Shown in pieces: positions 13,950 through 33,759 of a stretch of 64,000 nt of DNA (position 1 is the first letter of the stretch; every line of letters starts with the position of its first letter). The position numbers and the translations under genes are program-made. Source of the stretch: Candidatus Palauibacter ramosifaciens (GTDB taxonomy: Bacteria > Gemmatimonadota > Gemmatimonadetes > Palauibacterales > Palauibacteraceae). Under the pieces are notes generated by a model. It did not search any database, was not told the origin of the DNA, and worked only from the letters and a program-made list of their open reading frames with translations. The stretch lies in the NCBI GenBank assembly GCA_009845855.1, contig VXYT01000105.1:944-64943 (forward strand). The letters run 5' to 3'.

Positions 13950-14059
13950 GGCGAACAGCTTCCCCGCCCCGGCCCTCCGCGCGAAGACCCCGCGGAACTT
14001 CACGTGCCCTCCGGCGCCGGGGTGGCTTCGACCTCCCGGGCGGTCCATCTTTCCGGACT

Positions 14060-14133: not shown

Positions 14134-14193
14134 ATTCAACCGGGCAGCCCGCCGCAGGGGCCCCACGCCCGGCGGGCGGCCGGACTCGAGGCT

Positions 14194-15800: not shown

Positions 15801-15804
15801 GGCG

Positions 15805-16052: not shown

Positions 16053-16973
16053 CTACAGCTTGTCGAGGACGAGTACCGCCATGAGCAGTGGAAGATACAG
16101 GATCGAGGCCCGGAACAAACCCCGGGCGTTCGCCGGCGTCGCGGCGCGGGCGAAGCGGAGCGCGGTCCACAGGAAGAACCCGCCGAGACCGAGCGCCACC
16201 GTGAAGTAGGCGAGGCCTGTGAGGCCGAGGACGCTCGGTAGCAGACTCACCGGAATCAGCGTGAGCGCGTAGAGCAGCGCCTGGTGGCGCGTCCGCCGGC
16301 CCTCGAAATCGCCGACGGAGAGCATGCGAAGCCCCGCCGCCCCGTAATCGTCGCGGAGCAGCCACGCCAGGGCGAGAAAGTGCGGCAACTGCCAGACGAA
16401 GAGGATCGCGAACAGCGCCCAGCCGCCCGGACCGAACTGCCCGGTGGCGGCGGTCCAGCCACCGAGGATCGGCAGCGCCCCGGGCACCGCGCCCACGACG
16501 GTGGAGAGCGAGTGCACGCGCTTGAGCGGCGTGTAGACGAAGTCGTAGGAGATGAAGGTGGCGAGCGCGAGGCCCGCGGTCACCGGATTGACCGCGATCC
16601 ACAGCCAGACGATGCCCGCCGCGGCCAGGACGCCGGAGAAGGCCGCAGCCGGGGGTGTCGCGATCCGGCCCGCCGGCAGAGGCCGCGCGCGCGTGCGCCC
16701 CATGAGCGCGTCCACATCCCGCTCCAGCACCTGGTTCATCGCGCTCGTTCCCGATGCCACGAGGGCCACGCCGGCCATGGCCTGCGCGAAGAGGGCGAAG
16801 TCGAAGCTCGCCGCGCCGAGGAGGAATCCGGCGGCCGCGCTCGCGACGACGAGCGCCGTGATGCGCGGCTTGGTGAGTTCCAGGTATGCGGGAAGCGTCC
16901 CGCGAATCGAGTGGACCCGCCTCGACATCCCGCCGAGCGGGATGGGGGCCTTCAGCAGGCTGCCGGCCTCCAC
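16053..16973 (-). CDS. ctaB: protoheme IX farnesyltransferase (heme O synthase)
   Basis: UbiA-family polyprenyltransferase with the typical CtaB/CyoE N-terminus YLELTKPRI. Start may be the internal ATG at 16928. Confidence 0.85.
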   Translation of the reverse strand: MEAGSLLKAPIPLGGMSRRVHSIRGTLPAYLELTKPRITALVVASAAAGFLLGAASFDFALFAQAMAGVALVASGTSAMNQVLERDVDALMGRTRARPLPAGRIATPPAAAFSGVLAAAGIVWLWIAVNPVTAGLALATFISYDFVYTPLKRVHSLSTVVGAVPGALPILGGWTAATGQFGPGGWALFAILFVWQLPHFLALAWLLRDDYGAAGLRMLSVGDFEGRRTRHQALLYALTLIPVSLLPSVLGLTGLAYFTVALGLGGFFLWTALRFARAATPANARGLFRASILYLPLLMAVLVLDKL

Positions 16974-16986
16974 GACGGCGTCGCGC

Positions 16987-17295
16987 CTACACGTACTCCA
17001 TCATGATCGCGATGATCATGATGGCCACGGCCGGAAGGGGCGCCAGCGCCACCAGCCGCAGGCGGTTGGGTTCGAATTTCAGGTGCATGTAGTAGAGCGC
17101 GACGAGCAACGCCTTCCAACCCGCCATGATGAGCAGTGACGTGATGATCAACCACTGTGCGATGTCCAGGTAGACCACCCCGACCTCGAGGGCCGTGAGG
17201 ATGGCCAGGTACAGCCAGATGAGCATGTACTTCGGGTGCTCGTGCCCGTGATCGTCGGCGCCGCCCGCCGCGTGTCCTCCGGCTGCTTCACTCAT
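16987..17295 (-). CDS. cytochrome c oxidase subunit IV (prokaryotic type)
   Basis: 102 aa, two TM helices, His-rich N-terminus; directly downstream of coxC. Confidence 0.6.
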   Translation of the reverse strand: MSEAAGGHAAGGADDHGHEHPKYMLIWLYLAILTALEVGVVYLDIAQWLIITSLLIMAGWKALLVALYYMHLKFEPNRLRLVALAPLPAVAIMIIAIMMEYV

Positions 17296-17350
17296 TCGTT
17301 CGCTCCATGTCTCCCGGCGCCGACCGGCCCGGCGCGGCCAGGTGTCGACG

Positions 17351-17965
17351 CTAGATCAGGTATACGATCGTGAACAGGATGATCCACACGAGGTCGACGA
17401 AGTGCCAGTAGAGGCCGAGCACCTCGATCCCGTGCGTGTTGTCCGCCCCCCAGTGCCCGCGCCAGGCGCGGATCGTGGCCCACGCAAGGCAGATGACGCC
17501 GAGCAGGACGTGGAAGCCGTGGAAGCCCGTCATGGTGAAGAACGTCGCCCCGTACAGTCCCGCGGCCGGCGTGAACCCGTGGCTCCCCTGCCAGGACTGG
17601 TGAAGCACGAGTTCGACGTACTCGTACACCTGCACGCCGAGGAAGGTCGCCCCCAGGAGCGTCGTCCCCAGGAGATAGACCTTGATCCCCCGCTGATCCC
17701 CCGCCTGCGCGGCCGCGAACGCCTTCACCATCGTCACCGAGCTGCAGATGAGGAGGAAGGTGTTGAACGCGGTGATCGGGACGTTGAGCACCTCGTTGGG
17801 TACCGCCCACGTGTCGGCGGCCCCGAACCGGAGCACGACGTACGAGCCGATGAGGCCCGCGAAGAACATCACCTCCGAGCACAGAAACACCCACATTCCC
17901 ACCTTCTGGGTGTAGACGTCGAGTCCTCGCTCGGGGACCCGGCCTGCGGTCGCGGCGTGCGCCAT
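17351..17965 (-). CDS. coxC: cytochrome c oxidase subunit III
   Basis: 204 aa with 5-6 TM helices; GFHGFHVLLGV and WHFVDLVWI motifs. Confidence 0.85.
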   Translation of the reverse strand: MAHAATAGRVPERGLDVYTQKVGMWVFLCSEVMFFAGLIGSYVVLRFGAADTWAVPNEVLNVPITAFNTFLLICSSVTMVKAFAAAQAGDQRGIKVYLLGTTLLGATFLGVQVYEYVELVLHQSWQGSHGFTPAAGLYGATFFTMTGFHGFHVLLGVICLAWATIRAWRGHWGADNTHGIEVLGLYWHFVDLVWIILFTIVYLI

Positions 17966-18008
17966 TATCGTCTCTTCCCTTCCCCTGCGCTGCTGGTTCG
18001 ATCGATGG

Positions 18009-19775
18009 TCAATGGCTGCCCGCGGCCGGGCTCACGACGTCCGGCCGTTCGTTCTGGGCCAGCCAGTCCTTGTCCTCCACATCCGGGTGGCTGTACTCGT
18101 GCGGACCGTGATAGACGACCGGGACTTCCTCCCAGTTGCCGTGCTTGGGCGGCGAGGGCGTCTGCCATTCCAGCGTCGTCGCGTTCCACGGATTCGCCCC
18201 GGCCTTCCTCCCCTTCTTCAGGCTCCAGAAGAAGTTGAAGGCGAACAGGAAGCCGGACGCGAAGAGTCCGAACGCCGCCCACGTGATGATCGCGTTCGTG
18301 TCCTCGATGCCCTGCAGGTGCGCGTAGCCGGTGGAGTCGTAGATGCGGCGCATCATCCCCACCATCCCCACGCCGTGCATCGGGAAGAAGACCAGGTTGA
18401 AGAAGACGAAGGTGAGCCAGAAGTGGATCTTGCCCATCGTCTCGTTCATCATCCGGCCGAACATCTTCGGATACCAGAAGTAGATCGCCCCGAAGAGCGC
18501 GAACAGGCTGCCTCCGAAGAGTACGTAGTGGATATGCGCCACGATGAAGTACGTGTCGTGGATGTAGATGTCCACCGGCGTCGAGGCCATGAAGACGCCC
18601 GACAGGCCTCCGATCGCGAACATCGCCACGAACCCGATCGCGAACAGCATGGCCGAGTGGAGCTGGAGGTTCCCGCGCCACATCGTGCCCATCCAGTTGA
18701 ACGTCTTGATCGCCGAGGGCACGGCGATGAAGAGCGTCGAGACGGTGAAGGTGAGCCCCAGCATCGGGTTCATCCCGCTCTGGAACATGTGGTGGCCCCA
18801 CACGATGAAGCCCAGGAAGGCGATCGAGACGAGCGCCAGGACCATCGCCTTGTAGCCGAACACCGGCTTCCGCGACCCCACGGAGAGGATCTCGGAGGTG
18901 AAGCCCATGGCCGGGAGGATGAGGATGTAGACCTCCGGGTGGCCGAAGAACCAGAACAGGTGCTGCCAGAGGAGCGGCTGTCCCCCGCCCTCCGGGAGGA
19001 AGAAGCTCGTTCCGATCGTCTGGTCGAAGATGAGCATGATCCCGGCGGCCGACAGGACGGGCATCGCGAGCAGCGCGAGGATGGCCGTGATGAACAGCGA
19101 CCAGATCGTCAGCGGCATGCGCATCCAGGTCATGCCGGGGGCGCGCATGTTGATCGTCGTCGTGATGTAGTTCACCGATCCCAGAATCGATGAGAGCCCG
19201 ATGAAGACGAGCGCTACCAGCCACAGGATCTGCCCCAGCCCGACGCCGGTAAGGTCGGGACGCGCGCTGAGCGGCGCGTAGAGCGTCCAGCCGGCCCCGG
19301 CCGCGCCTCCGACGACGAAGAAGCTGGCAAGGGTGAGGATGCCCGCCGGCACCATGGCCCAGAATGAGAGCATGTTGAGCCGCGGGAACGCCATGTCGTG
19401 CGTGCCCAGCTGGAGCGGGATGAGGTAGTTCGCCCACACGCCCACGAGCATCGGCATGATGGCGAGGAAGACCATCACCGAGCCGTGCATCGTGACGAGC
19501 GCGTTGTAGAACTCCGGCAGTATGTACCCGCTCGCGACCATGCTCTCGGGGAAGATCCCGCCCAGCGGCAGCTCGCCCCGCGCCGGCCACGCGATCTGGT
19601 ATCGCATGAGCATCGCGAGCAGTCCGCCGATCATGAGGAAGAACAGGGTGTAGATCAGGAACTGGATCGCGATGACCTTGTGGTCGGTCGAGAAGATGTA
19701 CTTGCGCAGGAAGGACTGCTCGTGCTCCTCGTGCAGGATCGCCTGCCCGGTCGCCTCCGCTACGATCGTCGCCAT
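18009..19775 (-). CDS. coxA: cytochrome c oxidase subunit I (A-family heme-copper oxidase)
   Basis: 588 aa; WFFGHPEVYILILP and HDTYFIVAHIHYVL motifs. Confidence 0.95.
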   Translation of the reverse strand: MATIVAEATGQAILHEEHEQSFLRKYIFSTDHKVIAIQFLIYTLFFLMIGGLLAMLMRYQIAWPARGELPLGGIFPESMVASGYILPEFYNALVTMHGSVMVFLAIMPMLVGVWANYLIPLQLGTHDMAFPRLNMLSFWAMVPAGILTLASFFVVGGAAGAGWTLYAPLSARPDLTGVGLGQILWLVALVFIGLSSILGSVNYITTTINMRAPGMTWMRMPLTIWSLFITAILALLAMPVLSAAGIMLIFDQTIGTSFFLPEGGGQPLLWQHLFWFFGHPEVYILILPAMGFTSEILSVGSRKPVFGYKAMVLALVSIAFLGFIVWGHHMFQSGMNPMLGLTFTVSTLFIAVPSAIKTFNWMGTMWRGNLQLHSAMLFAIGFVAMFAIGGLSGVFMASTPVDIYIHDTYFIVAHIHYVLFGGSLFALFGAIYFWYPKMFGRMMNETMGKIHFWLTFVFFNLVFFPMHGVGMVGMMRRIYDSTGYAHLQGIEDTNAIITWAAFGLFASGFLFAFNFFWSLKKGRKAGANPWNATTLEWQTPSPPKHGNWEEVPVVYHGPHEYSHPDVEDKDWLAQNERPDVVSPAAGSH

Positions 19776-19790
19776 ATCAGCCTTTCTCGA

Positions 19791-20462
19791 TCACTGGGCG
19801 GCAGCCGGCGCCTGGCTGGCCTGCCAGGCGTCGAAGTCCGCCGCGCTGTGCACGGTCACGCTCGCCATCATGTAGTAGTGGCCGAGGCCACACAGTTCGG
19901 CGCACGCGATCTCGAAGTTCCCGGTCTGGGTCGCGTCGAACCACACCGGGATGGTCATGCCCGGCACCGCATCCTGCTTCACGCGCAGTTCGGGGATGAA
20001 GAAGGAATGGATCACGTCTTCGGACTCGAGCAGGATCGTGATGTCCTCGTTCACCGGGAAGTGGAACTGGTTCCGGACGGTGAAGTCGTCCGCCGTTCCC
20101 AGCGTCTCGTCGACTCCGGGATAAGTGATGTTCCACTCGAACTGCTTGCCGACGACGAGGAACTCGAGCGCGTCCGCGGGGCGGTTGGAGCTTCCCTTGA
20201 TGTCGTCCCAGACGAGGGCCGAGTAGGCGCCGAGGACCGCGATGATGATCGCGGGGATCACCGTCCAGATGATCTCCAGCCGGTTCGATCCATGGGTGTA
20301 GTGCGCCTTCGCTCCTTCACGCCCGCGATACTTGAGGCAGAACCAGAGAATCCCGCCCTCCACGAGGAGGAAGGCAATGCCGGTGATGACGAGAATGATC
20401 CAGAACAGCTGGTCGATCACGACGCCGAATGTCGAGTAGTTCGGGGGCAGCGCCCAATCCAC
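19791..20462 (-). CDS. coxB: cytochrome c oxidase subunit II (CuA, no cytochrome c domain)
   Basis: Two N-terminal TM helices; CuA motif CAELCGLGHYYM; no CxxCH present. Confidence 0.9.
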   Translation of the reverse strand: MDWALPPNYSTFGVVIDQLFWIILVITGIAFLLVEGGILWFCLKYRGREGAKAHYTHGSNRLEIIWTVIPAIIIAVLGAYSALVWDDIKGSSNRPADALEFLVVGKQFEWNITYPGVDETLGTADDFTVRNQFHFPVNEDITILLESEDVIHSFFIPELRVKQDAVPGMTIPVWFDATQTGNFEIACAELCGLGHYYMMASVTVHSAADFDAWQASQAPAAAQ

Positions 20463-20552
20463 GAGCGATCTCCTTCCAGGTGAGCCCTTCGGGTGAACGG
20501 GAACGCGAGCGGGACCGGGCGGCCGCTCCGGCCGCCCGGTCCCGCCCCGGAG

Positions 20553-21413
20553 TTACTGGGTGCGCTCCACCCGAATGCGGTTCGTGCCGTGCTCGAGGAC
20601 GAGCGCGTCGCCCATGGGGACGTCGGCGCCCATCATCTCGCCGCTGTAGTCGAACGAGGCCATGGCCGTCCCGCCCGCAGTGACGGTCACGCTCGCCGTC
20701 ATGGTGCCGAACTCCTCGTGCCACGCCGTCATCGTGTAATCGCCGGCCGGCACGTTGGCGATCGAGTAGCTCCCGTCGGCGCCCGTCACCGCGAAGTACG
20801 GGTGGTCGACGACACCGATGTACGCCTGCATCCAGCCGTGCACGTCGCAGCGCACCGGCACCATCACCTCTGCCACCTGGAAGCGCTGCGTGCTCGTGAT
20901 CCCCGCCCGCGGCTGGCTGATGTTGAAGCCACGGTTCTCGGTCGGGGTGGCGTTGATGTTGTGGAGCAGGTTGTCGCTGTTCGAGATCTCGATGTCCTGA
21001 CCACTCTGCACGCCGAGCACGTGCGGCGTGTAGCGGCAGTTCACCTGGTCGAGTTCCGCGGCGCCGGACGCCGCCGGCGCGCCGGAGACGCCCTCGCTCA
21101 GGTAGACGAACACGTTGGCGAGGCCGCCGTTGGACACGAGGACGTTCTGGGCCATGGGCCCGTCCGCGCCGTAGCCGGCGGCGCAATCCGCCTCGGCCGA
21201 CATGTCGATGGCCTCCATCGTCGGGACCATCCCGCCGAAGTTGGCCATACCCGAGATCGTCCCCACCGTGGACGGATCCACCGCAGCGGCAGCCGGCGCC
21301 GCCTCGCCGGCGTCGTCCGCCGCACCTTCGGACGATCCGCCACCGCCGCCACAGGCGGCCATCGCCACGACGGCCAGCAGGGCGGCCGAGCGGTTCCAGA
21401 AATGCGATCGCAT
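20553..21413 (-). CDS. cupredoxin-like lipoprotein with C-terminal carboxypeptidase-regulatory-like beta-sandwich
   Basis: Lipobox AMAAC. Type-1 copper-like ligand pattern H(TPHVLG)...C-D-V-H-G-W-M (C-x2-H-x2-M, amicyanin spacing). C-terminal GADGSYSIANVPAGDYTMTA motif. Only the last 286 aa of ORF 20553..22922 are credible. Confidence 0.55.
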   Translation of the reverse strand: MRSHFWNRSAALLAVVAMAACGGGGGSSEGAADDAGEAAPAAAAVDPSTVGTISGMANFGGMVPTMEAIDMSAEADCAAGYGADGPMAQNVLVSNGGLANVFVYLSEGVSGAPAASGAAELDQVNCRYTPHVLGVQSGQDIEISNSDNLLHNINATPTENRGFNISQPRAGITSTQRFQVAEVMVPVRCDVHGWMQAYIGVVDHPYFAVTGADGSYSIANVPAGDYTMTAWHEEFGTMTASVTVTAGGTAMASFDYSGEMMGADVPMGDALVLEHGTNRIRVERTQ

Positions 21414-21475: not shown

Positions 21476-23038
21476 TCATCCATCCCTCCGACGGTCCTGG
21501 GCCCGGCGCACGAGAACGAGACCGAAGGCCCCCGTCAAGAGCATGGCCAGCAGGGGCGTCACGACGACCGTGCTGGATGCCGGAGGTTCGAGCAGAATGT
21601 AGTACCACGTGCTTACGGAACTGCGCTTTCCGACCTCGGCGCTGGACCCGTCCCACGCCTGGAACGCGATGGGCGTCGGGGTGCCCTCGGCGAAGTCCAG
21701 GCCGTCGCTTTCGATTTCGATCGAGCGGCGGAGGTAGAGCGTCCAGCGCCCCTCCTCCCACGTCGCCTCTCCGGCTACCGGGTCCTCCGCGAGCGGTTCG
21801 ACGGAGTCGAGGCCGCGGCCGCGCCCCGCTCCGACGCCGGTCTCCGAATCCCACGTCCACAGGTAGACCGGCTCGCGGGCGTCGCCCATCAGGAAGTACG
21901 GCCTGTCCGTGCCCTCCGGCGGTTCGAAGGGGAACTGCAGGAGCACCGCGTCCGGGGGCCGCGAGGTCGGCGCGCCGACGCTGTCGAGCGCGATGGGTTC
22001 CGCGCCGTCCAGGTCGAGCGCGGTCGTGATCTTGTTCTGCCACTCGTCCCAGTTCGGGTCCGGGCTGTTCGATGGGTCGTTCCACTGCACGCGCAGGGCG
22101 ATGTCGTTTCCATCGTGGAGCCCCTGCACCCAGAGCCCGTCGACCGCCGGCGCGAAGTTGCGCGGCAGCTGCACGACCTGGCCGGACAGCGGGAAGTAGA
22201 AGGCCTCGACGCCCGCCCAGGCCTCCTCGCCGCCGTCGGCCGGGAGCCCGCCCTCGGCGCGTCCCACGCGGATCACGTCGCGTAGCGGCGGCATCTCGCG
22301 CGGCCCCAGCGAGGCGAGGTAGTGCGCCAGTTGCCAGACCTCGTCGGGCGAGACGACGCCCGAGTTCATGGCGTCGATGGCCGACGGCATCGGCGTGCCG
22401 TCCAGTCCGGTCAGCATGCGGGTATGCATGTCCTCGACGCTGCTGCCGCCGTTCAGGACCCATGCCTCCGTGAGGTCGGCGGCGCGAATGGGGAGGCCGC
22501 GCCAGTCCTCCAGCGTCGGCGCCGAAGTCCCGTCGCCGCGCCCCGAGAGGCCGTGGCACTCCTCGCACAGCATCGTCAGGTACGCCGCCGCCCCTGCCTC
22601 GACCGCGGCGGGACCGCCGCCGGGATCGGAGCCGAAGTCCAGCGGCTCCGGGGCCGGACCCTGGCCGAAGAACCTCGAGAAGCTCTTCAGGTAGACGATG
22701 AGGTCGTCGATCTCCCCGTCCGTGAGGTTGGGCCAGCCCGGCATCGTCGTACCCGGGAGCCCGTTCTCGATCGCGAACCGGATGTCCGCGTCCGTGGGGA
22801 GCTGCCCGCTCCCGGTCGTCCGGATCTGGTAGAGCGCCTGCGTGAAATCGCGCGGCCGCGGCAGCATCGACGCGGCGGCCGAGCCATCCCCCTGCCCGGT
22901 TTCGCCGTGACACTCCGCGCACCAGCGATCGTACACGACCTTGCCCGCGGCGGCCGCGTCTTCCTGTCCCGCGAGTGCGGACGGCGTGCCCGCGAAGAGG
23001 ACGAGGAGCACGATTCCCGTTCCGCGCGGCGCCCTCAT
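21476..23038 (-). CDS. dihaem c-type cytochrome with large C-terminal domain and C-terminal TM anchor
   Basis: Signal peptide, CAECH and CEECH, then a ~250-aa W/D-rich domain and a TM helix at the extreme C-terminus. Confidence 0.65.
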   Translation of the reverse strand: MRAPRGTGIVLLVLFAGTPSALAGQEDAAAAGKVVYDRWCAECHGETGQGDGSAAASMLPRPRDFTQALYQIRTTGSGQLPTDADIRFAIENGLPGTTMPGWPNLTDGEIDDLIVYLKSFSRFFGQGPAPEPLDFGSDPGGGPAAVEAGAAAYLTMLCEECHGLSGRGDGTSAPTLEDWRGLPIRAADLTEAWVLNGGSSVEDMHTRMLTGLDGTPMPSAIDAMNSGVVSPDEVWQLAHYLASLGPREMPPLRDVIRVGRAEGGLPADGGEEAWAGVEAFYFPLSGQVVQLPRNFAPAVDGLWVQGLHDGNDIALRVQWNDPSNSPDPNWDEWQNKITTALDLDGAEPIALDSVGAPTSRPPDAVLLQFPFEPPEGTDRPYFLMGDAREPVYLWTWDSETGVGAGRGRGLDSVEPLAEDPVAGEATWEEGRWTLYLRRSIEIESDGLDFAEGTPTPIAFQAWDGSSAEVGKRSSVSTWYYILLEPPASSTVVVTPLLAMLLTGAFGLVLVRRAQDRRRDG

Positions 23039-23826
23039 TCGTGCCCCCCTTCCTCTTCCCAGGTGCGCGGCGGGAACCCCGTCTGGTCGTAGAGATAGAG
23101 GATCACCGCCCAGATCTCGTCCTGTTCGAGGATCGTCTCCCAGGCCGGCATCGCCGAGTCCCACGGCGTCCCTTCGCGCGGAAGGCCGGGGCCGCCCTTG
23201 ACGATGCGCCAGAACACGTAGCTCTCCGTGAGCTGGGGCAGGTTGCCCGAACTCGTGAAGTCGGCGGGGACCGGGTTGAAGGCCGGCGCGTAGTGGCCCT
23301 GGCCGTCGAGCAGATCGCCGTGGCAGGGCACGCAGTTTCGCACGTAGATCCGTTTCCCGACCGCCAGGTGCTCCTCCATGGAGCCTTCCTCGCGCAGCGG
23401 ATTCTCGAGCCCCGTCAGCTCGATCGTCTCCCCGCGGAAGGTGAGCTGGTTCGGCGGCGCCGGGTGTACGGCCCGCAGCGTGGCCGGTGCGGCGTAGCTC
23501 GGCTTCACGCGCTCGTAGGCGAGCCAGCCGATGAGGACCGGGAAGGCGACCATGAGGATGCCGCGCACCGTCCGCCGGTCAGGCTGCACCATCGTCGCGC
23601 GGATCGGCTCGCGGAAGCGCTGCCACCGGTCCTCGTCCGCGCTCATGTAGAGGAGGACGCCGACGAGCACGATCAGCATGTACTCCACGATGACCGAACT
23701 CGGGACCGGCGCGCTCGCCACGCCGATCACCGGGAGGACGTAGCCGATCACGTACTCGAACGCGACGTAGGACGCCACGACGACGATCGCGCCCTGCCAG
23801 AACGGGTGGGACAGGTAACGTTTCAT
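23035..23826 (-). CDS. membrane-anchored monohaem cytochrome c
   Basis: Two N-terminal TM helices followed by a class I cytochrome c domain (CVPCH). ATGA overlap with the downstream gene. Confidence 0.65.
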   Translation of the reverse strand: MKRYLSHPFWQGAIVVVASYVAFEYVIGYVLPVIGVASAPVPSSVIVEYMLIVLVGVLLYMSADEDRWQRFREPIRATMVQPDRRTVRGILMVAFPVLIGWLAYERVKPSYAAPATLRAVHPAPPNQLTFRGETIELTGLENPLREEGSMEEHLAVGKRIYVRNCVPCHGDLLDGQGHYAPAFNPVPADFTSSGNLPQLTESYVFWRIVKGGPGLPREGTPWDSAMPAWETILEQDEIWAVILYLYDQTGFPPRTWEEEGGHE

Positions 23827-24659
23827 CGGCTACCTCCCACGCTGTCGGGCGGGACTTCCGCCGCATCGCCGGGAGCCTCCGCGCCGCCTCCCGCGCCTCC
23901 CACGAAGAAGTCCACCAGCACGTCGAGTTCCACCGGTGACATGAGATCGCCGAAGATCGTCGGCATCGTTCCGGCGAAGGTCGAGTATTCCTCGTTGATC
24001 GTCGCCATCGGATCCACGATCCCCTCGAGGACGAAAGCGGGATCCTGTCCCCGCAGTTCCTCGAAGGGGGGGGCGACCATGCCGCCCTCTCCGCCGAGCG
24101 CGTGGCAGGCGAGGCAACCCTGGGCCGTAATCAGCGCAACGGCGTCGACCTGGCTCAGGTCGGTGACGGCGACGGGCGGCGGTGCGGACGCGGCCGCGTC
24201 GTCGGCCGCCAGCGCCGCGGCGAAGTCGTCCGCGTTCACCGTGATCTCACCGCCTTGCGATTGCAGGAAGGCGACGAGCGTCCACAGCTCGGCCTGCGAT
24301 GAAACGATGCTCTGATCGATCATGATGGGGTCGAAGCCCTCCACGATGTAGGCCGTCGGGTTGACCAGAGATTCCCACAGATAGTCCTTGCAGCTTTGCC
24401 CCGGGACGCGCGTCGCGCACACGCCGCCCACCACCCCGAGGAGGTCCGGAGCGCGCGTTCCGAGCCCGTGGCACGCCGTGCAGCCGCCCGCCCCCGCGTA
24501 GATCTCCTCGCCGATCGCCGCCAGCTCCTCGGGCGGCATGTCCGCGTTGAGCACGATCTCCCGAGGGACCGCCGACTGCACCTGCGGAATCACGTTGGCC
24601 ACGAAGGTGAACACCGCCAGCGTCGCCACGACCGTGAACAGGATCTTCAGGTTCGTCAT
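23823..24659 (-). CDS. membrane-anchored dihaem cytochrome c (CcoP-like architecture)
   Basis: N-terminal TM, CTACH and CLACH haem sites separated by an Ala/Asp-rich linker. Confidence 0.7.
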   Translation of the reverse strand: MTNLKILFTVVATLAVFTFVANVIPQVQSAVPREIVLNADMPPEELAAIGEEIYAGAGGCTACHGLGTRAPDLLGVVGGVCATRVPGQSCKDYLWESLVNPTAYIVEGFDPIMIDQSIVSSQAELWTLVAFLQSQGGEITVNADDFAAALAADDAAASAPPPVAVTDLSQVDAVALITAQGCLACHALGGEGGMVAPPFEELRGQDPAFVLEGIVDPMATINEEYSTFAGTMPTIFGDLMSPVELDVLVDFFVGGAGGGAEAPGDAAEVPPDSVGGSR

Positions 24660-24738
24660 CTACTCTTCCCGTCCTCGCACCACGGTCCTCGAATCCCCGC
24701 TCCGGGCCATCGTCCGTCCCCGCTCCCGGTCATCGCCC

Positions 24739-26559
24739 CTAGTCCACGTCGCCCAGGGAGGGCGCCGGCATGGGGTCCCCGAGCGCGGCGCGCCCCTCCT
24801 GTCCAGCCTTCACCTTCGCCTCGGCTTCCTGGTACACGGAGCGTTCGGCCAGGCCACCGAGCCAGAAGATGAGGCCGACGAGCCCGAAGAAGATGAGCAC
24901 GCAGATGCTGATGATCGTCGCCGCCGGCCCGAGTGCCGGGGTGAACGCCTGCTCGCTCGTGTCCCGGATCACCTCATAGACGTGCCAGTGCTGCCGGATC
25001 CCGCTGCGCGCGAAGCCCATCAGCCCCATGAGCCACGTAAACGTGACCGCGAGGATGAGGAGCGCGTACTGGGACCGGTCCGGCATCCGCCCCCACCGGA
25101 TCTCGCCTCGGGATCTGGCGCCCCGCAGCATCGCCATGTCGATGCCGATGACGAACAGGATCGTCGCCAGGACCGCGAGCACCTGGTAGACGGAGAAGCC
25201 GATCCGCACGATCGCCGTCACGAAATAGCCGTACACGCCGTAGAACACGACGATGACGGCGCACAGCGCGAAGGCCGCCCCCTGCAGCATGGTCCCCGCG
25301 CGCGCCCACGGCACCACGGGATCCTTGTTCGCCCTCCGGTACATGAGGAAGGAGAGGAACGTCGTCAGGATCATCAGGTTGACGGCCGTGTTCTTCGCGC
25401 TCATCACGCCGAGCACCTGCAGGAACGGGTGCCGGATCCCTCCCATGGCCGCGATCTCGTCCCGGTCCGCAATCATCGTATTCGGCGTGGCCCACACGAT
25501 GACCCCGAGCACGAGCACGAGCAGCATCCACTTGATGTAGGGCTGAAACCGTTCCGCCCCGGGAATCCGCCCCATCCCGATCCAAAGATAGTAGTTGCCC
25601 GCGAGGAAGAGGATGCCGATGAGGAAGGCCTGGATGATCCAGAGCCAACTCATGAAGCCGCCCATCATCGTGATGCCCATCTGCTGGCTGAACTCGTAGA
25701 TCTCCCGTCCGAGCCAGTAGCCGGCGAAGGGGAGGACGATGAGCGCGCCGATCGCGATCAGGTTGCCGGTGTAGCCCATCCAGTCGTAGTGGGCGCGTTC
25801 CTCATCCGTCTTGCTCGTGAGGAAGCGGTACGCCGCGTAGGCGCCGACGATGGCGCCGCCGAACACCACGTTCGCCAGCAGCCGGTGGATGTTGATCGGC
25901 ATCCAGGTCGCGTTGTTGATGGCGCTCCACAGCTGGACGGTCTGCGGGGCCGTATCCGCCGTGAGTCCCTCCGGCGGGCTCATCATGTAGGTGAGCCAGC
26001 CGTTCGCGATGAACATGACGATCGTGCCCCAGACGTTGAGCATGATCCCCAGGCACCAGTGGGCCTTCTTCGCCGCGCCCTTCTTCCACGCGTCCCACCC
26101 GTAGTAGTAGAGGTAGAGCGTGAAGGATTCGAGGAAGAAGAGGCCCGCGTACACCCACATCGACGGAGCGAAGATCGCCGTAAGATACGCCCAGAAGCGC
26201 GGGTAGAGCGTCGAGAGGAAGAAGACGAGGATCGCGCCCCAGATCGCGGTCGCGCTGTAGGCCACGAGGAGGAGGCGGGTGAATTCCTTCGCGAGCTTGT
26301 CGTACTTCTCGTCCCCCCCGAACATCCCGATCGCCTCGATGACGACGGCGAACATGGGCACGCCGAGCACGAAGGCGGCAAACAGCAGGTGGAGCTGGGC
26401 CGCGATCCAGACCGCGCCGCGGCGGTCGAGCCCGAGGAAGTTGAACTCTCCGTAGTCGGGTCCCGGCGCTTGCGCGAGGAGCGGGAGGGCGACCGCCAGG
26501 ACGAGGACGGCGAGCAGTACGCCGCGGGTCGCGACGCCACGGGTAATCCAGCGCTTCAT
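24739..26559 (-). CDS. cytochrome bd-type oxidase subunit I (CydA) homologue, stand-alone (no CydB)
   Basis: Helix-1 motif RGAVWIAAQLHLLF. GLFFLESFTLYLYYYGWD and KAHWCLGIMLNVWGTIVMFIANGW closely match the CydA FFLES...GWD...ANGW region. 606 aa with an extra N-terminal helix. Only the last 606 aa of ORF 24739..27192 are credible. Confidence 0.75.
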   Translation of the reverse strand: MKRWITRGVATRGVLLAVLVLAVALPLLAQAPGPDYGEFNFLGLDRRGAVWIAAQLHLLFAAFVLGVPMFAVVIEAIGMFGGDEKYDKLAKEFTRLLLVAYSATAIWGAILVFFLSTLYPRFWAYLTAIFAPSMWVYAGLFFLESFTLYLYYYGWDAWKKGAAKKAHWCLGIMLNVWGTIVMFIANGWLTYMMSPPEGLTADTAPQTVQLWSAINNATWMPINIHRLLANVVFGGAIVGAYAAYRFLTSKTDEERAHYDWMGYTGNLIAIGALIVLPFAGYWLGREIYEFSQQMGITMMGGFMSWLWIIQAFLIGILFLAGNYYLWIGMGRIPGAERFQPYIKWMLLVLVLGVIVWATPNTMIADRDEIAAMGGIRHPFLQVLGVMSAKNTAVNLMILTTFLSFLMYRRANKDPVVPWARAGTMLQGAAFALCAVIVVFYGVYGYFVTAIVRIGFSVYQVLAVLATILFVIGIDMAMLRGARSRGEIRWGRMPDRSQYALLILAVTFTWLMGLMGFARSGIRQHWHVYEVIRDTSEQAFTPALGPAATIISICVLIFFGLVGLIFWLGGLAERSVYQEAEAKVKAGQEGRAALGDPMPAPSLGDVD

Positions 26560-27968
26560 CGCTTTTCCCCCCGTCCCGCGCTCCGCCGACTGCGGGCGAA
26601 GAAGGGTATCCGTTTCGAGAAGTCCACCGGCATGGCCCGGCGGACCTCGGTCATCACGTCGACCGTCACCTCTGCGTGCCCGCGCTCGCGCGCGAACTTC
26701 TCCACACGTTCCGAAACCACGCCGCGCACGAAGCTGGGAATGGCGTTCAGCCGGGTGGCGGCCTCGGCGCTCCACGGCAGCTCCCGCTCGACCGCCGAGC
26801 CGTAGGTGACCGGCTGCCGCGGCTCGATCGCGGGCGCGATGCCGGGTGCCGGCTCGTAGGCGCAGGAAGAATCGGGACCGAGCAGGTCTCCGTCCACCGC
26901 GTAGGCGCGGGCGCGGCAGCCGCCGCACAGGGCGCGGTACTCGCAGCGCCCGCACTTGCCGCCCGGTTCGCCCTCGCGCAGCAGGCGGAAGACGGTCGCC
27001 TCGCGCCAGATCTCGCCGAAGGACGCCTCGGCGAGGTCGCCGGCCACCTCCGGCATGTACGGGCACGGCGTCACCTTGCCCTCGGGCGTGATGCGGCAGT
27101 ACTGGACGCCGCAGGGGCAGCGCGTCCGGTAGTTCAGGAGCGGCGAGTCCGGGTCCCGTTCGTACACGTGCCGCATGAGTTGCGGCTGGCACTTGGAGCG
27201 GATCATCAGCCGCCCGCGGTAGTCTCGCTGGAGTTCGGCCAGCCGGGCCACGATCTCGTCGTTCTCCTCGGGGGCGAGTCCGCGCATTCCCTCTCCCCTG
27301 CCCGTCTCGACGAGGAAGTAGACGTTGAGGCAGACCGCGCCCTTCGCGTCCGCCCAGGCGGCGATCGCATCGAGTTCGTCCCGGTTCCCGCGCGTGACGG
27401 TGAACTGGATGAGGAAGTCGAGCCGGTGCTCGGCCAGCCGATCGACCGCGGCGAGTGTGTCCTCGAGCGCGCCCTCGCCGTGCCGGAAGCGGTCGTGATA
27501 GCGCGAGTCGAGGGAGTCGACGCTGAGGGCAACGCCCTGCACGCCGGCCGCCTTGAGCGAGGCGATGCGTTCATCGGTGAGCCCGGTGCCGTTCGTGCCC
27601 ACGGTCACTGTGGCGCCGCGCTCGGCGGCGTAGGCGGCGATCTCCTCGAGGTCGGAGCGCACGAGCGGCTCCCCCCCGCTGAGGATGAGGAGCGGCGACG
27701 GACTCGTTTCGAGGATCTGGTCGATGACGCGGAAGCAGGCCGCGGTATCGAGTTCGTCCCCGTCCGCGTGCCACGATCCGGCGGAGATGTAGCAGTGCGC
27801 GCAGGCGAGGTTGCAGCGGCGCGTAAGGTTCCAGGCGACCACGTGCGGGATCGCGACATCGGGTTCGGCCCGCGGAGACCCGGCGGCGGAGGCGCCGTCC
27901 CAGAGCGAACCGGGCACGGCCGGGCTCCGGTTCGCGACGGCTTCCGCGGCCAGCGGGGCCCCGGTCAC
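26556..27968 (-). CDS. radical SAM/SPASM-domain enzyme with C-terminal PCP_red-like module
   Basis: CNLACAHCY radical-SAM cluster motif; Cys-rich SPASM/twitch region (CPCG...CGRCEYRALCGGC). C-terminal LPWSAEAATRLNAIPSFVRGVVSERVEKFARERGHAEVTVDVMTEVRRA. GTG start overlaps the upstream TGA; stop overlaps the cydA-like ATG. Confidence 0.75.
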   Translation of the reverse strand: MTGAPLAAEAVANRSPAVPGSLWDGASAAGSPRAEPDVAIPHVVAWNLTRRCNLACAHCYISAGSWHADGDELDTAACFRVIDQILETSPSPLLILSGGEPLVRSDLEEIAAYAAERGATVTVGTNGTGLTDERIASLKAAGVQGVALSVDSLDSRYHDRFRHGEGALEDTLAAVDRLAEHRLDFLIQFTVTRGNRDELDAIAAWADAKGAVCLNVYFLVETGRGEGMRGLAPEENDEIVARLAELQRDYRGRLMIRSKCQPQLMRHVYERDPDSPLLNYRTRCPCGVQYCRITPEGKVTPCPYMPEVAGDLAEASFGEIWREATVFRLLREGEPGGKCGRCEYRALCGGCRARAYAVDGDLLGPDSSCAYEPAPGIAPAIEPRQPVTYGSAVERELPWSAEAATRLNAIPSFVRGVVSERVEKFARERGHAEVTVDVMTEVRRAMPVDFSKRIPFFARSRRSAGRGEKR

Positions 27969-30262
27969 TTCGCGCGTGACCCCTGCTCCGAAGCGGGACG
28001 GACGTCCGCTCCCGACTCTTCGCCCAGTTCGGTGCGCGCGAACTTCTCGACCGCCGCGCGGGCATCGTCGGGCGACACCATCTTGAAGTCGACGGGACAG
28101 TCCGCCGCCTGCTGCTCGATGTCGCGGATCGGACAGCGCGTTACGCCGGAAGCCTTCGCTTCCTCGATGAAGCGCTTCATCTCCTCGCTCATGCCGTCGA
28201 CGCCGGCAGCTTCGGCCCGCGCCTGCTTCGCCTTCAACTCGTTGAACATCACGAGCATCGTGTCGAGGTCGAACTCGTCGGCCGCGATCATCGCGTCCTT
28301 GTTCTCGTCCATCACGACGGTCGTCACGCGCCACATGCCCTGGTCGCGGGCGAAGCGCTCCACCGTGTTCCGAGCGAGGGGGCGGGCGATCAGCGGCACG
28401 CGCCCCAGCCGCTCGAACGCCTCGTGCGTCCACACGATCGGGTCGGCGTCCGTGCGGTCGCGGGGGATCTGGTTGTCCGTGACCGGACACTTCGCCATCA
28501 CGGGGAGGGGGGCCTCGAAGGCGTCCGCGTCGCTCGTCTCCACGACGGTGCGCTTCATCGCCTCACCCGCCTTCACCTCCGCGAGGGCGAGCTCCTCGGC
28601 GTCACCGATCCCCATCACGAGCTGCATGTGGGTCGGAAGGAGCTTCTTGATCGCCTCGTCCAGGCGCTCGTTCGTCACCACGGGCAACTGGTCGCGGTTC
28701 CAGAGTTCCGTCTTCTCCGCCTTCCCCCGCCCGTTGGCGGCCTGTCCGACCTCGGCGATCGACGGGGCCGCGCCGGTCTCCAGCGCGTCGCGCGCCACCT
28801 TCGCGGTGCCGCTCGCCCCATTGCCGGCCGCGGCGTTTCCATCGGCCGGCGGCGACGCCGCCCGGTACTGCTTCTCGTCCTTCGGGTTCGGGACGAAGGC
28901 GGCCGCGTAACGGCTCCCGGGGCCATAGTGTTCGAGGACGAACTCCTCGACGGCCTTGCGGGCGATCCCCAGGGCGAAGGGCGGCACGCGCAGGATCCTC
29001 ACCTCCGCCTCGGGTGCCCACTCGAGCCCGGCCTCGCCGTCCTCCTCGATCCAGGGGATCTCCTCCGGCCGGACGTTCCCGGTCCCGAGGAGGAGGATGT
29101 TCGTATCCGCGAGCGAGACGAGGTTGTCGGCCTGCGAGCCGATGTCCGTGCCCTCGATGCGGTGCGAGCCGTGGCGGGCCACGACGATGAGGGACGGATC
29201 GATCTCCTCGGCCCACTTGAGGAGCACGTCGAACGGCTTCCCGACCAGCACCTGGGTCTCGATGTCGACCTCGGGATACTCGCTCGCCATCACCTCGGCC
29301 CGCTTGATGTTCGCCTTGCAGAGGCGGAGGAGGCCCTTGTCGATGATGTTGTTGTGGAGCTCTTCCTGCTCCTCGAACTTGAACACCTTCGAGGCCTGGA
29401 CGGAGAGCACGTCCTTGATGTTGTGGAAGACGACGTGGTGGTACTGCACGTCGAAGGCGCTTGCGATGTAGACCGTGGCGCCGTATTCGCGCGCCATTTC
29501 GAGCGCGATCCTCAGGCCCTTGTAGGCGTAGGCCGACCCGTCCACGCCGACGAGCCACTTGCCGCCCTCCAGCGGCCGGTCGTCGCGAACGATGAGCGCG
29601 TCCTTTTCGATCCCGCGGAGCGCGCGCGCCACGACGCCGCCGAGGCGGCTCCGTTCCTGCCTCCCGAGACCGTGGGCGCCGATGGTGACGAGGTCGTAGT
29701 CGCGGCCGGAGGTACCCGCGAGCTTGTCCTCCTGCTCTTCGTCCTCGGCCACGAGCCGGCCGTTCTCGCCCAGCTTGACGTCCGCCCGCTGCTTTTCGCT
29801 GCCGTCGTAGTTGTGGGCGATGTTGGGGTCGAAGCCGATGAGGCTCGGGAGACGTCCGCCGCCGCGGTTCGCCTCGTTGATGATCTCCTCGTAGTTGATG
29901 CCCTCGAGGAGCTGCCGCGTGAGGGTCACCCCGGCTTCGGAGCAGCGGCGGTGGAGCTGGTCCAGGAAGCTGTCCGAGATGAGTTGCAGCCCCTTCTCGA
30001 TCAGCTTGTCGTGGATCTTGCGCTGCCTGCGGATCTCCGCCGGCTCCTGGAACTGGGCCGGGAGCCCGATCTCGAGCTGGCGGAACCGGATGTCGTGGAG
30101 GCGCGCGGCGTAGACGTGAGAGCCGGTGATGCGGCCCCCGGAGCGAGCGCAGAGTTCGATGGCTCGGTCCACGGCCCAGTCCGACTCGCGCGAGTTATCG
30201 ACCGGGACGAATACCTCTCGATACATGGCGCTCCGTTGGACGGCATGCTGCGGCCGGTTCAC
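27965..30262 (-). CDS. multidomain protein: tandem universal-stress-protein (UspA) domains plus PCP_red-like repeats
   Basis: UspA-like segments (VFVPVDNS...; YDLVTIGAHGLG; LIVVARHGSHRIEGTDIGS). Two C-terminal copies of the W-x-x-EA-x-x-RL-x-x-P-x-x-x-R-x-x-x-x-x-x-E-x-FAR-x-xG motif. Confidence 0.55.
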   Translation of the reverse strand: MNRPQHAVQRSAMYREVFVPVDNSRESDWAVDRAIELCARSGGRITGSHVYAARLHDIRFRQLEIGLPAQFQEPAEIRRQRKIHDKLIEKGLQLISDSFLDQLHRRCSEAGVTLTRQLLEGINYEEIINEANRGGGRLPSLIGFDPNIAHNYDGSEKQRADVKLGENGRLVAEDEEQEDKLAGTSGRDYDLVTIGAHGLGRQERSRLGGVVARALRGIEKDALIVRDDRPLEGGKWLVGVDGSAYAYKGLRIALEMAREYGATVYIASAFDVQYHHVVFHNIKDVLSVQASKVFKFEEQEELHNNIIDKGLLRLCKANIKRAEVMASEYPEVDIETQVLVGKPFDVLLKWAEEIDPSLIVVARHGSHRIEGTDIGSQADNLVSLADTNILLLGTGNVRPEEIPWIEEDGEAGLEWAPEAEVRILRVPPFALGIARKAVEEFVLEHYGPGSRYAAAFVPNPKDEKQYRAASPPADGNAAAGNGASGTAKVARDALETGAAPSIAEVGQAANGRGKAEKTELWNRDQLPVVTNERLDEAIKKLLPTHMQLVMGIGDAEELALAEVKAGEAMKRTVVETSDADAFEAPLPVMAKCPVTDNQIPRDRTDADPIVWTHEAFERLGRVPLIARPLARNTVERFARDQGMWRVTTVVMDENKDAMIAADEFDLDTMLVMFNELKAKQARAEAAGVDGMSEEMKRFIEEAKASGVTRCPIRDIEQQAADCPVDFKMVSPDDARAAVEKFARTELGEESGADVRPASEQGSRAK

Positions 30263-30439: not shown

Positions 30440-31147
30440 CTAGGGAGTTCGCGGCCAGCGGAGGCGGCGGCTCCAATCCGAGGCGAAAACGGCGGCCCCG
30501 AAGGTCGCGCCGGCCGCAACGAGAAGGCTTGGCAGCCAGACGGAAGCCTCCATGGGCATCCCGCTGGTGCCGGCCGTGAGCGCGGCCCGCAGCGGCGTGT
30601 ACGGATTCCACTCGGCGACGAGGGAGGTCCAGCCGGGAACGGGGGTCCGGAAGAAGCCGGCGAGGTGAAGGAGGAGAAGGGAAAGCGCCGCGGAAGCGAG
30701 GGCCGCTTCGGCGAGCGAGCGCACCGCGGCCGCCACGAGGGGACCCAGCAGGTTCGCGAACCACAGCGTCGCGAGGACCGACAGGAGGACAACGGGACCC
30801 GCGCCTGCTCCGCCGGCCGACCACAGGAGGACGAGGGCGGCGGGCGCAAGCTGGAGCGCGTCGATCGTCGTGCCGGCGAGCGTGCGCTCGAGGAACCAGC
30901 GGGGCGCGGAGTAGCCGGTGCGGAGGATCTCATCGAGCCAGCCGTCTCGGGCGTCGCGCACAGCCGGAATGGCTGAACCGAAAGCTCCGAAAAAGACGAT
31001 GAACACGCCGAAGACTGCGACCCGGTGCGGCGCCGCGGCTGCGCTGAGGGCGACAGGCGTGAGGAGGAGGAGCGGGACCGCGACGTTCCACAGAAACAAC
31101 CGCCGCCGCCGGAGGGCGGTGCGCCACGCCAGACGCCAGATCGTCAC
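30440..31147 (-). CDS. ABC-2 type transporter permease
   Basis: 235 aa, six hydrophobic helices, downstream of the ABC ATPase with a 4-nt overlap. Confidence 0.5.
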   Translation of the reverse strand: MTIWRLAWRTALRRRRLFLWNVAVPLLLLTPVALSAAAAPHRVAVFGVFIVFFGAFGSAIPAVRDARDGWLDEILRTGYSAPRWFLERTLAGTTIDALQLAPAALVLLWSAGGAGAGPVVLLSVLATLWFANLLGPLVAAAVRSLAEAALASAALSLLLLHLAGFFRTPVPGWTSLVAEWNPYTPLRAALTAGTSGMPMEASVWLPSLLVAAGATFGAAVFASDWSRRLRWPRTP

Positions 31148-32091
31148 CGGGCGCGCCCTTCCAGACGCCGGCCCGTGAGCGTCGCGAACGCGTCCGCAAG
31201 ATCGGGTTCCCGGACATCGACGGAGGCGACGGAGGCGCCGCCGCGCAGGACCCAGGCCAGCGTCTCCGGGAGGGCCCGGCTCGGGTCCTCGACCCTAAGG
31301 ATCACCGCGCTCTCGTCCCAGGCCGACGCGCGCACCGCCGGCGGCGCGGGGCCGAGTGTGTCGGGATCGGGACTCTTCCCGGCGGCAAACCGGATCTCGA
31401 CGCGCGGACGGGCGCCGACGCGCTCCAGGAGCCGGGCCGGGGTATCCGCCACCGCGCAGCGGCCATCGACGATGAACGCGACGCGGTCGCAGTGCGCCGC
31501 GGCGAAGGCGGGATCATGGGCGGACAGCACGGAGGTCTTCCTGGCCGCGCGGTGGTCGGCGAGGGCTTCGGCGAAGGCCTCCCGCCCGCCGGGGTCGAGC
31601 CCGGCCAGCGGTTCGTCGAGGAGGAGGAGGGGGGCCGCGGTACCGAACGCGGTCGCGAGGGCAAGCCGTCTCCGCATACCGCTCGAGTAGGTGCCGGCGG
31701 GGCGGTCCGCGTCGGCCTCGAGCCCGAAGCGCGCGAGCCAGGCGTTGGCCGTAGCACGCGCCTCGCCGGACCCCGCGCCGTGGAGTTCGAGCAGGATGGC
31801 CGCGTTTTCACGCCCGCTGAGCCACGTGCGGAGGGCGGGCCGGTCGGTGGCGAGCCAGCGCTTTCGGGCATCGTCGACGCCGGCGGTCCGTCGCATCCCC
31901 GGAACGCCGTCGCCGCCGAGGAGGCGGAGGAAGGTCGATTTTCCGGATCCGTTCGGGCCGAGGAGCGCGAGGCACTCTCCCTCGCGGACTTCGAGCGAGA
32001 GGTCCTTGAGGGCGGGACTCCCATCGGGGTAGCGGTAGGCGACCGCCTCCGCCGTCACCAGCAGCGGCTTCGCCCCTGCGCCGGGGCTCAC
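31144..32091 (-). CDS. ABC transporter ATP-binding protein
   Basis: Walker A GPNGSGKST; signature SSGMRRRLALA; Walker B LLLDEP. GTG start overlaps the ferredoxin TGA. Confidence 0.8.
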   Translation of the reverse strand: MSPGAGAKPLLVTAEAVAYRYPDGSPALKDLSLEVREGECLALLGPNGSGKSTFLRLLGGDGVPGMRRTAGVDDARKRWLATDRPALRTWLSGRENAAILLELHGAGSGEARATANAWLARFGLEADADRPAGTYSSGMRRRLALATAFGTAAPLLLLDEPLAGLDPGGREAFAEALADHRAARKTSVLSAHDPAFAAAHCDRVAFIVDGRCAVADTPARLLERVGARPRVEIRFAAGKSPDPDTLGPAPPAVRASAWDESAVILRVEDPSRALPETLAWVLRGGASVASVDVREPDLADAFATLTGRRLEGRAR

Positions 32092-32381: not shown

Positions 32382-32384
32382 CGG

Positions 32385-33715: not shown

Positions 33716-33759
33716 GGGGAGTGGAAGCTCCAATCGGGCCGGCAGACGGTCAACAGTGG

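Follow-up and report, generated by a model that had tools for sequence, protein, structure and literature searches.

An OR-N2-type CydA homologue with three cytochrome c genes and a conserved accessory gene set in Candidatus Palauibacter ramosifaciens

The CydA-like gene and its three cytochrome partners

We analysed a 64-kb stretch of DNA from Candidatus Palauibacter ramosifaciens (hereafter, the window) in which a gene for a homologue of CydA is directly followed by three cytochrome c genes. The window has a G+C content of ~70%, and all genes relevant to this cluster are on the minus strand. The CydA-like gene (24739-26559) encodes a 606-aa protein. It is followed by cA2 (23823-24659), encoding a dihaem cytochrome c with an N-terminal membrane anchor, cB1 (23035-23826), encoding a monohaem cytochrome c, and cEB (21476-23038), encoding a dihaem cytochrome c with an additional haem b domain resembling EbdC and NxrC. 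An original prediction, made from the letters of this DNA without database searches, had placed a CydA homologue and three cytochrome genes with overlapping reading frames at 23035-26559. The three cytochrome genes were indeed found, but the third lies outside that interval, and only the cytochrome genes overlap: 79 nt separate the CydA-like stop codon from the cA2 start, whereas cA2/cB1 and cB1/cEB are each joined by an ATGA overlap.

The CydA-like protein begins MKRWITRG and consists of an N-terminal signal/anchor helix and 13 transmembrane (TM) helices. Pfam Cyt_bd_oxida_I (PF01654) covered residues 52-299 with an E-value of 6.4e-23, and the CydA signatures quoted in the original prediction were all present, namely LHLLF with H57, FFLES...YYYGWD, and KAHWC...ANGW. 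In alignments to solved CydA chains and in a family-profile search (E 1.4e-17 to 5doq_A), the homology spanned TM1-TM6. PDB homology ended near residue 290, apart from a weak C-terminal match at the GRQPW loop, which here reads IRQHW. No CxxCH motif was found in the 606 residues.

An AlphaFold2 model of the protein (pLDDT 87.4, pTM 0.85) contained the N-terminal helix plus 13 long helices, 14 in total. A helical hairpin occupied the position of the Q-loop, the longest periplasmic loops measured 22-29 residues, and there was no long hydrophilic loop. The Q-loop, to which the original prediction had drawn attention, is thus absent from the model. Every PDB structure that Foldseek retrieved with the model was a CydA subunit from a canonical bd oxidase, with E-values of 6.5e-9 to 1.7e-5 and 13-15% identity.

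We then compared the haem-ligand and channel positions with those of E. coli CydA in an alignment of 34 family members (28-98% identity). H57 corresponds to E. coli H19 and was kept in 32 of the 34 sequences; it also aligns with Geobacillus H21. The equivalents of H126 (H167), H186 (H225), and the M393 site (M386/N390) were kept as well, and that of E107 (E144) was kept in 26/34. By contrast, E99 is replaced by Y137 and E445 by S519, with W525 six residues further on, and both glutamates have been lost family-wide. F114 and F116 are replaced by Y151 and Y153. Among the haem ligands singled out in the original prediction, therefore, H19, H186, M393, and E107 have retained equivalents, while E99 and E445 do not.

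More than 7,800 CydA-like homologues were scored in a 90%-clustered database, and 1,186 representatives remained at E <= 0.001 with 50% clustering. The nearest relatives, at up to 98% identity, came from Candidatus Palauibacter and other Gemmatimonadota. Identity was 75-98% among the gemmatimonadotal matches and at least 52% among those retrieved from other phyla, indicating that the protein is not degenerate. Three homologues of 784-889 aa with 47-55% identity (P0122, P0125, and P0134) carried one or two C-terminal CxxCH motifs and are natural fusions of a CydA-like protein with cytochrome c. At 30-40% identity, we also found paralogues encoded by orphan genes that lack cytochrome c genes beside them (P0193, P0158, and P0141, at loci L081, L082, and L083), one of which was translationally coupled to a saccharopine dehydrogenase/ArgZ-like gene. 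These orphans may represent a functionally different subfamily.

No gene for a second oxidase subunit accompanies the CydA-like gene, in agreement with the original prediction. When all polytopic membrane open reading frames of the 64-kb window were scanned with Pfam, none matched CydB (PF02322); those present were cox, UbiA, ABC-2, Mrp/Nuo-type, Nramp, and MlaE proteins, together with one 7-TM protein without a match. A PF02322 gene was likewise absent from four further loci (L084 and L086-L088). A tblastn search of the window with five CydA-like queries returned only the 24739-26559 gene itself and no second CydA.

The three cytochromes are predicted to be membrane-anchored and to face the periplasm. 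cA2 has haem-binding motifs CTACH and CLACH, a TM segment at residues 6-24, and Pfam matches to Cytochrome_CBB3 and Cytochrom_C. cB1, also recognized by Pfam, carries a single CVPCH motif and three to four N-terminal hydrophobic/TM segments, and is 45% identical to its Nitrospirota counterpart. cEB, whose motifs are CAECH and CEECH, has a signal peptide and is anchored by a TM helix at its C-terminus; profile scans matched it to EB_dh and DMSO_red_II_gam. Its N-terminal dihaem domain closely resembled PDB 6h5l chain B (E 1e-47), which we take to be the dihaem partner Kustc0457. That chain is deposited as a 'conserved hypothetical cytochrome protein' in an entry for a Kuenenia HAO-like complex. 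The C-terminal domain of cEB aligned with EbdC (2ivf_C) and Kuenenia NxrC (7b04_C), with the haem-ligand Met conserved and a Lys close to the second ligand position. Together, the three cytochromes would hold five c-haems and one EbdC-type b-haem.

Assignment to OR-N2 and conservation of the four-gene unit

The OR-N2 family was named by Murali, Gennis and Hemp in 2021 (bioRxiv 10.1101/2021.01.16.426971) for members of the bd superfamily with 14 TM helices and no quinol site. The OR-N2 row of their Supplementary Table 6 lists 14 TM helices and the residues H99, Y183, E190, H213, H269, N434/M430, S563, and W569, and their supplement describes OR-N2 operons as typically holding several cytochromes c and an EbdC homologue. 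The electron donor is given there as unclear, possibly cytochrome c. The residue signature is matched here by Y137, E144, Y151/Y153, H167, H225, M386/N390, S519, and W525, and cA2, cB1, and cEB stand directly after the CydA-like gene. Pairwise identity pointed the same way: the CydA-like protein was 50% identical over 577 residues to a Nitrospirota bd-like protein of the NIDE0901 type, whose gene precedes homologues of cA2 and cB1, compared with 31% to a Nitrospirota paralogue encoded beside Rieske/cytochrome b genes, a context of the OR-N1 type. Judged from its residue signature, helix count, operon, and pairwise identities, the product of 24739-26559 appears to be an intact member of OR-N2. 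No OR-N structure was found in the PDB up to April 2026 by Foldseek.

In Nitrospira, OR-N2 is known as the NIDE0901-like 'bd-like oxidase', and in Ca. Manganitrophus as TO_1. Papers on these organisms describe a four-gene unit in which the bd-like oxidase is joined by two cytochromes c and by a protein that is anchored in the membrane and called alt-NxrC or 'periplasmic cytochrome b', and take this highly expressed unit as a putative terminal oxidase; in the Nitrospira literature, the module fills this role where haem-copper oxidases are missing. The Nitrospira and Manganitrophus proteins resemble the one described here in the 14 TM helices, the signature residues, the operon, the lack of CxxCH, and the predicted lack of a quinol site. 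The known hosts are nitrifiers in the case of Nitrospira, whereas Ca. Palauibacter is a heterotrophic marine member of the Gemmatimonadota. The module has been discussed in the Nitrospira literature, which attributes it to Lucker et al. 2010.

The original prediction had suggested a cytochrome-c-linked clade of the bd superfamily, known phylogenetically and biochemically uncharacterised, and OR-N2 fits that description: according to reviews on Nitrospinota (2024) and Nitrospirales (2025), experiments have yet to confirm the subunit composition and function of the bd-like oxidase. The family is already named, its operon is already described, and the locus adds a further member. The accompanying statement that bd oxidases have no cytochrome c partners holds for the quinol-oxidising qOR branch only, and not for other branches.

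Other members of the superfamily were considered and rejected. Canonical CydAB(X) oxidases (qOR1-3; 6rko, 5doq, and 7nkz) share with the protein the TM1-TM6 core, the equivalents of H19, H186, M393, E107, and H126, and a GRQPW-like loop motif. They differ in having CydB, a Q-loop, and both E445 and E99, in place of which the protein has Ser and Tyr; it has in addition two extra helical hairpins and the N-terminal helix, and cytochrome c partners instead of quinol. OR-C is missing the quinol site, as is predicted for the system here, and presumably receives electrons from cytochrome c, but its CydA has 8 TM helices, contains CxxCH, and keeps E99. With 14 TM helices and no CxxCH in the CydA-like protein, OR-C was ruled out.

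To place the unit in a wider context, we carried out a synteny scan with one genome per species, which yielded at least 579 loci, and analysed the best 80. These came from Gemmatimonadota, NC10, Acidobacteriota, Bacteroidota/Rhodothermales, Myxococcota, Calditrichota, Fibrobacterota, Spirochaetota, Thermodesulfobacteriota, and Rhodocyclales. A further locus, from Nitrospinaceae (L085), was truncated. The order CydA-like, cA2, cB1, cEB was intact and colinear in all 59 loci that had at least 4.8 kb of downstream sequence. The four-gene module is thus widespread in non-nitrifiers.

For Nitrospirota and Nitrospinota, an enzyme built from two CydA paralogues (CydAA') has been proposed. There was no second CydA-like gene in the window or in the flanks of 77 of the 80 loci, and the lack of a nearby OR-N1 partner argues against this idea. 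Since no OR-N1-type partner was found in the flanks, the enzyme in the surveyed phyla seems to use a single CydA-family subunit. The three loci with a further CydA-like match were L019, L020, and L022. L020 (Myxococcota) and L022 (Spirochaetaceae) each contained two complete, divergent OR-N2 clusters, one lying ~6.5 kb upstream of the match on the opposite strand, and both clusters had their own cytochromes and cupredoxin-like lipoprotein. In L019, a short locus from Thermodesulfobacteriota, a second CydA-like gene begins downstream in the same orientation and is cut off by the contig end.

Accessory genes upstream and the cupredoxin and cox genes downstream

Immediately upstream of the CydA-like gene, and coupled to it translationally as the original prediction had stated, lies a gene for a radical SAM/SPASM enzyme (26556-27968); its stop and the start of the CydA-like gene share an ATGA. 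Its own start is probably the GTG at 27968, which overlaps the stop codon of the next gene upstream (GTGA) and yields a protein of 470 aa, as in the closest homologues. The best NCBIfam scores were 272 bits for NirJ2 and 268 bits for AhbD, about half the equivalog cut-offs of 500 bits. Like AhbD and NirJ/NirJ2, the enzyme has a SPASM domain, the CX3CX2C motif, and the exact auxiliary-cluster motif of AhbD, CX2CX5CX2CX17C (PMC10114771). It differs from them in its scores, in an extra C-terminal PCP_red domain of the type found in protochlorophyllide reductase subunit B (BchB), and in its genetic linkage, which is to a respiratory complex and not to ahb or nir genes. Its motifs and profile matches (Pfam, NCBIfam) place it in the AhbD/NirJ clade, and not as an equivalog of either.

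PCP_red is the C-terminal domain of BchB, in which it caps the tetrapyrrole pocket. Four such domains are encoded here: besides the one in the radical SAM enzyme, two occur with two USP domains in the product of 27965-30226, and one in a small Zn-ribbon protein (32388-32867). The latter gene is flanked by those for a single-cluster 4Fe-4S ferredoxin (32091-32384; Pfam Fer4_13, E 6.7e-11) and a P-loop ATPase of the Mrp/NBP35 (NUBPL) type (32897-33733; Pfam ParA/NUBPL, E 1.6e-60), which is probably an Fe-S cluster carrier. Between these two halves of the accessory set sit Pfam-assigned genes for an ABC-2 permease (30440-31147) and an ABC ATPase (31144-32151), which are conserved chiefly within Gemmatimonadota.

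Linkage of the accessory genes was counted in loci with full 10-kb flanks, comprising 28 from outside Gemmatimonadota and 8 from within. All eight gemmatimonadotal loci contained the genes for the USP protein, the radical SAM enzyme, the Mrp-like ATPase, and the small PCP_red protein. Outside this phylum, the USP gene was linked in 23/28 loci, the radical SAM and Mrp-like genes in 17/28 each, and the small PCP_red gene in 14/28. Additional radical SAM copies appear to sit just past the 10-kb flank in some loci. Among all 80 loci, the small PCP_red gene was present in 37, adjoining the Mrp-like gene, which was present in 36; the ferredoxin gene also occurred in L087 and L088. Reciprocal look-ups starting from radical SAM homologues led to OR-N2 clusters in three of three places. 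The radical SAM gene is therefore not incidental but part of a conserved accessory set.

Just upstream of the accessory set in the window lie genes for an HmuY-like haem-binding protein (34217-34879, +) and the porphobilinogen deaminase HemC (35166-35804, -), and HmuY adjoins the cluster in L087 too, which hints at a wider haem theme. In the thermoanaerobaculian locus L086, a nucleotidyltransferase/HepT-like toxin-antitoxin pair (9143-9962) is inserted between the small PCP_red and radical SAM genes.

Downstream of cEB, we found two further elements that the original prediction did not mention. One is a gene for a lipoprotein (20553-21413; lipobox AMAAC), for which an initial Pfam scan returned only a CarboxypepD_reg domain, a C-terminal beta-sandwich. 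In 20 homologues from several phyla, H151, N152, C189, H192, and M195 were invariant, forming a C-x2-H-x2-M loop. When a family profile was searched against the PDB, its matches to 5fc9, a type 1 Cu protein (E 3.5e-5), and to amicyanins (E 4e-4) ran the full length of these proteins. Because of these invariant amicyanin-type ligands and full-length matches, the product is predicted to be a membrane-tethered type 1 (blue) copper protein with an amicyanin-type cupredoxin domain, and it is probably a membrane-tethered electron carrier. The gene follows cEB in Gemmatimonadota and in some loci of Myxococcota, Spirochaetota, Fibrobacterota, and Thermodesulfobacteriota.

The other is a complete aa3-type cytochrome c oxidase operon on the same strand, with coxB, coxA, coxC, coxD, and ctaB (16053-20462; Pfam COX2, COX1, COX3, COX4_pro, and UbiA). 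Its first gene, coxB (19791-20462), encodes a protein without a fused cytochrome c domain. cox genes adjoin the cluster in all gemmatimonadotal loci and in the Rhodothermales loci; in the full-flank loci outside Gemmatimonadota, coxA was linked in 3/28 and coxB in 8/28. Between the cupredoxin gene and coxB lies a perfect 17-bp inverted repeat with a 3-nt loop (20509-20545). This hairpin is GC-rich and has no T-run, which explains why the terminator scan did not call it; it is possibly an operon boundary or an mRNA-stabilising element. A promoter/terminator scan of the 14-34 kb region gave nothing that exceeded shuffle expectation.

The flanking aa3 operon, the cupredoxin lipoprotein, and the radical SAM/PCP_red set distinguish the locus from described OR-N2 clusters. 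The paper of Murali and colleagues and its supplements contain no mention of radical SAM, USP, or cupredoxin genes, and a full-text literature search covering journals outside subscription found no report of a radical SAM enzyme with bd-like oxidases or their haem, and no relevant paper on PCP_red (PF08369). The link of the maturation set and the cupredoxin to OR-N2 therefore seems to be unreported, although, given that coverage of the literature, this silence speaks only weakly for novelty.

Three other features of the window were recorded. The 7-TM protein without a Pfam or NCBIfam match (14841-15863, -) is encoded downstream of ctaB, is conserved in gemmatimonadotal loci, and may act as an oxidase assembly factor or be a divergent haem A synthase. 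Further downstream, a gene at 10803-14135 (-) encodes a 1,110-aa protein in which an MFS/TLC-like transporter is fused to HEAT repeats and, at the C-terminus, to a cyclic-nucleotide-binding domain. On the other side of the cluster, 40192-46991 (-) holds an Mrp/Mbh-type cation:proton antiporter-like cluster with three Proton_antipo_M proteins and MnhB, MbhD/E, and NuoK-like subunits.

Proposed function of the complex and its accessory genes

From the residues and gene order described above, we consider it probable that the four gene products form a membrane complex of the OR-N2 type that reduces O2 with electrons from periplasmic c-haems. The CydA-like subunit keeps the N-terminal four-helix core of cytochrome bd, in which H57 is the predicted ligand of the catalytic high-spin haem; it also keeps H225 and M386 as the predicted His/Met ligand pair of the low-spin haem b558, and E144 and H167 as part of the proton pathway. 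Electrons would enter from periplasmic donors, for instance the cupredoxin lipoprotein encoded nearby or a soluble cytochrome c, and would then be relayed by the c- and b-haems first to the b558-like haem and from there to the H57-ligated haem. At this last haem, water would be formed from O2 and cytoplasmic protons, and the resulting charge separation would build membrane potential, as in cytochrome bd. The ATGA-linked cytochrome genes, the constant gene order in 59/59 loci, and the occurrence of C-terminal cytochrome c fusions in some CydA-like proteins all argue for a complex, and the conservation of the catalytic-haem ligand and channel residues across the family argues for O2 reduction.

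Several points weigh against this interpretation. No OR-N enzyme is known to have been purified or assayed, and O2 reduction is thus an extrapolation. Both the third-haem ligand E445 and the channel residue E99 are lost, so that a di-haem active site like that of true bd oxidases may be missing here. The Nitrospira literature also places the module in anaerobic anammox bacteria, and reverse electron flow has been proposed for one Nitrospira copy. In addition, an aa3 oxidase is already encoded immediately downstream, and what the radical SAM gene encodes might be an O2-independent coproheme decarboxylase of general function whose only tie to the complex is co-regulation.

The loss of the E445-type haem ligand and the reports of the module from strict anaerobes would also be compatible with a complex that acts on NO, peroxide, or some other substrate in place of O2, or with a membrane docking and electron-entry module for periplasmic enzymes of the type II dimethyl sulfoxide (DMSO) reductase family, possibly working uphill to quinone, an idea put forward for one Nitrospira copy and for anammox bacteria. 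In known enzymes, the haem b domain that cEB shares with NxrC and EbdC docks a Mo/Fe-S module, and anchoring of NXR together with reverse electron transport has been proposed in the Nitrospira literature. However, no molybdoenzyme gene is present in the cluster here or among the genes listed for L086-L088, most of the carriers retrieved belong to phyla not known for nitrite oxidation, and the catalytic-haem ligand is conserved. We regard this explanation as unlikely.

The genes downstream bring up another possibility, in which the complex would be a quinol:cytochrome c/cupredoxin oxidoreductase, that is, an alternative complex III (ACIII) on a CydA scaffold, oxidising quinol at the CydA-like subunit and passing electrons from its c-haems through the cupredoxin to the adjacent aa3 oxidase. 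Gene arrangements with ACIII, auracyanin, and an oxidase resemble the order seen here, that is, CydA-like, three cytochromes, cupredoxin lipoprotein, and coxBACD encoding a CoxB that lacks its own cytochrome c. ACIII, auracyanin, and caa3 oxidase likewise form a row of multihaem membrane complex, lipid-anchored blue copper protein, and haem-copper oxidase. ACIII has NrfD-like ActC/F as its membrane core and also an ActB-type Fe-S subunit, whereas the complex here has a CydA homologue as its membrane core and no ActB-type subunit. Canonical CydA, as the ancestor, oxidises quinol beside haem b558, the ligands of which are retained, and the presence of cox genes beside the cluster in all Gemmatimonadota loci and in Rhodothermales loci is also in keeping with such a chain. 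Nevertheless, the Q-loop is absent, cox linkage is not general outside Gemmatimonadota, Nitrospira has the module without a haem-copper oxidase, and a simple quinol dehydrogenase would not need the retained H19-type ligand or the E107/H126 channel residues. We regard an ACIII-like role, too, as unlikely.

That the cytochromes merely serve the aa3 operon, with the CydA-like protein as an unrelated or degenerate neighbour, can hardly be correct: the proximity of the genes to cox on a common strand and the CoxB without a cytochrome c domain would suit it, but it is contradicted by synteny, as all 59 loci have the cytochromes after the CydA-like gene, those without cox genes included, as well as by the perfect 17-bp hairpin between the cluster and coxB and the good conservation of the CydA-like protein.

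Returning to the preferred interpretation as an O2-reducing OR-N2 complex, we infer that the radical SAM enzyme, presumably co-transcribed with the complex, supplies or tailors its haem, and that the PCP_red partners, the ferredoxin, and the Mrp/NBP35 ATPase probably assist it. A more mundane explanation is that the enzyme could be an O2-independent AhbD-like coproheme decarboxylase, as postulated for bacteria with the coproporphyrin pathway (PMC10114771). More speculatively, OR-N2 might need a dedicated tetrapyrrole-tailoring pathway that makes a non-standard active-site haem, a counterpart of haem d in an enzyme without the third, E445-ligated haem. Such a pathway would comprise the AhbD/NirJ-like radical SAM enzyme with its BchB-type lid, the two further PCP_red proteins, the ferredoxin, and the Mrp/NBP35 carrier; we offer this as a tentative idea that is possible though doubtful. 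If it is true, haem tailoring could matter for the reconstitution of bd-like oxidases, because the accessory genes would need to be co-expressed.

In the globally important nitrifiers Nitrospira and Nitrospina, and in Mn-oxidising Nitrospirota, OR-N/bd-like complexes are presumed to act as terminal oxidases. The locus itself joins a family catalogued in 2021; what it adds is the conserved radical SAM/PCP_red/ferredoxin/Mrp set, the cupredoxin, and the spread in non-nitrifiers. The module is common in heterotrophic phyla, including Gemmatimonadota, Acidobacteriota, Rhodothermales, Myxococcota, and others, and these carriers may provide more tractable organisms for genetics and biochemistry. The conserved companions, namely the radical SAM, PCP_red, ferredoxin, Mrp/NBP35, and cupredoxin proteins, suggest hypotheses on the cofactor and electron donor of the complex and belong in its reconstitution.

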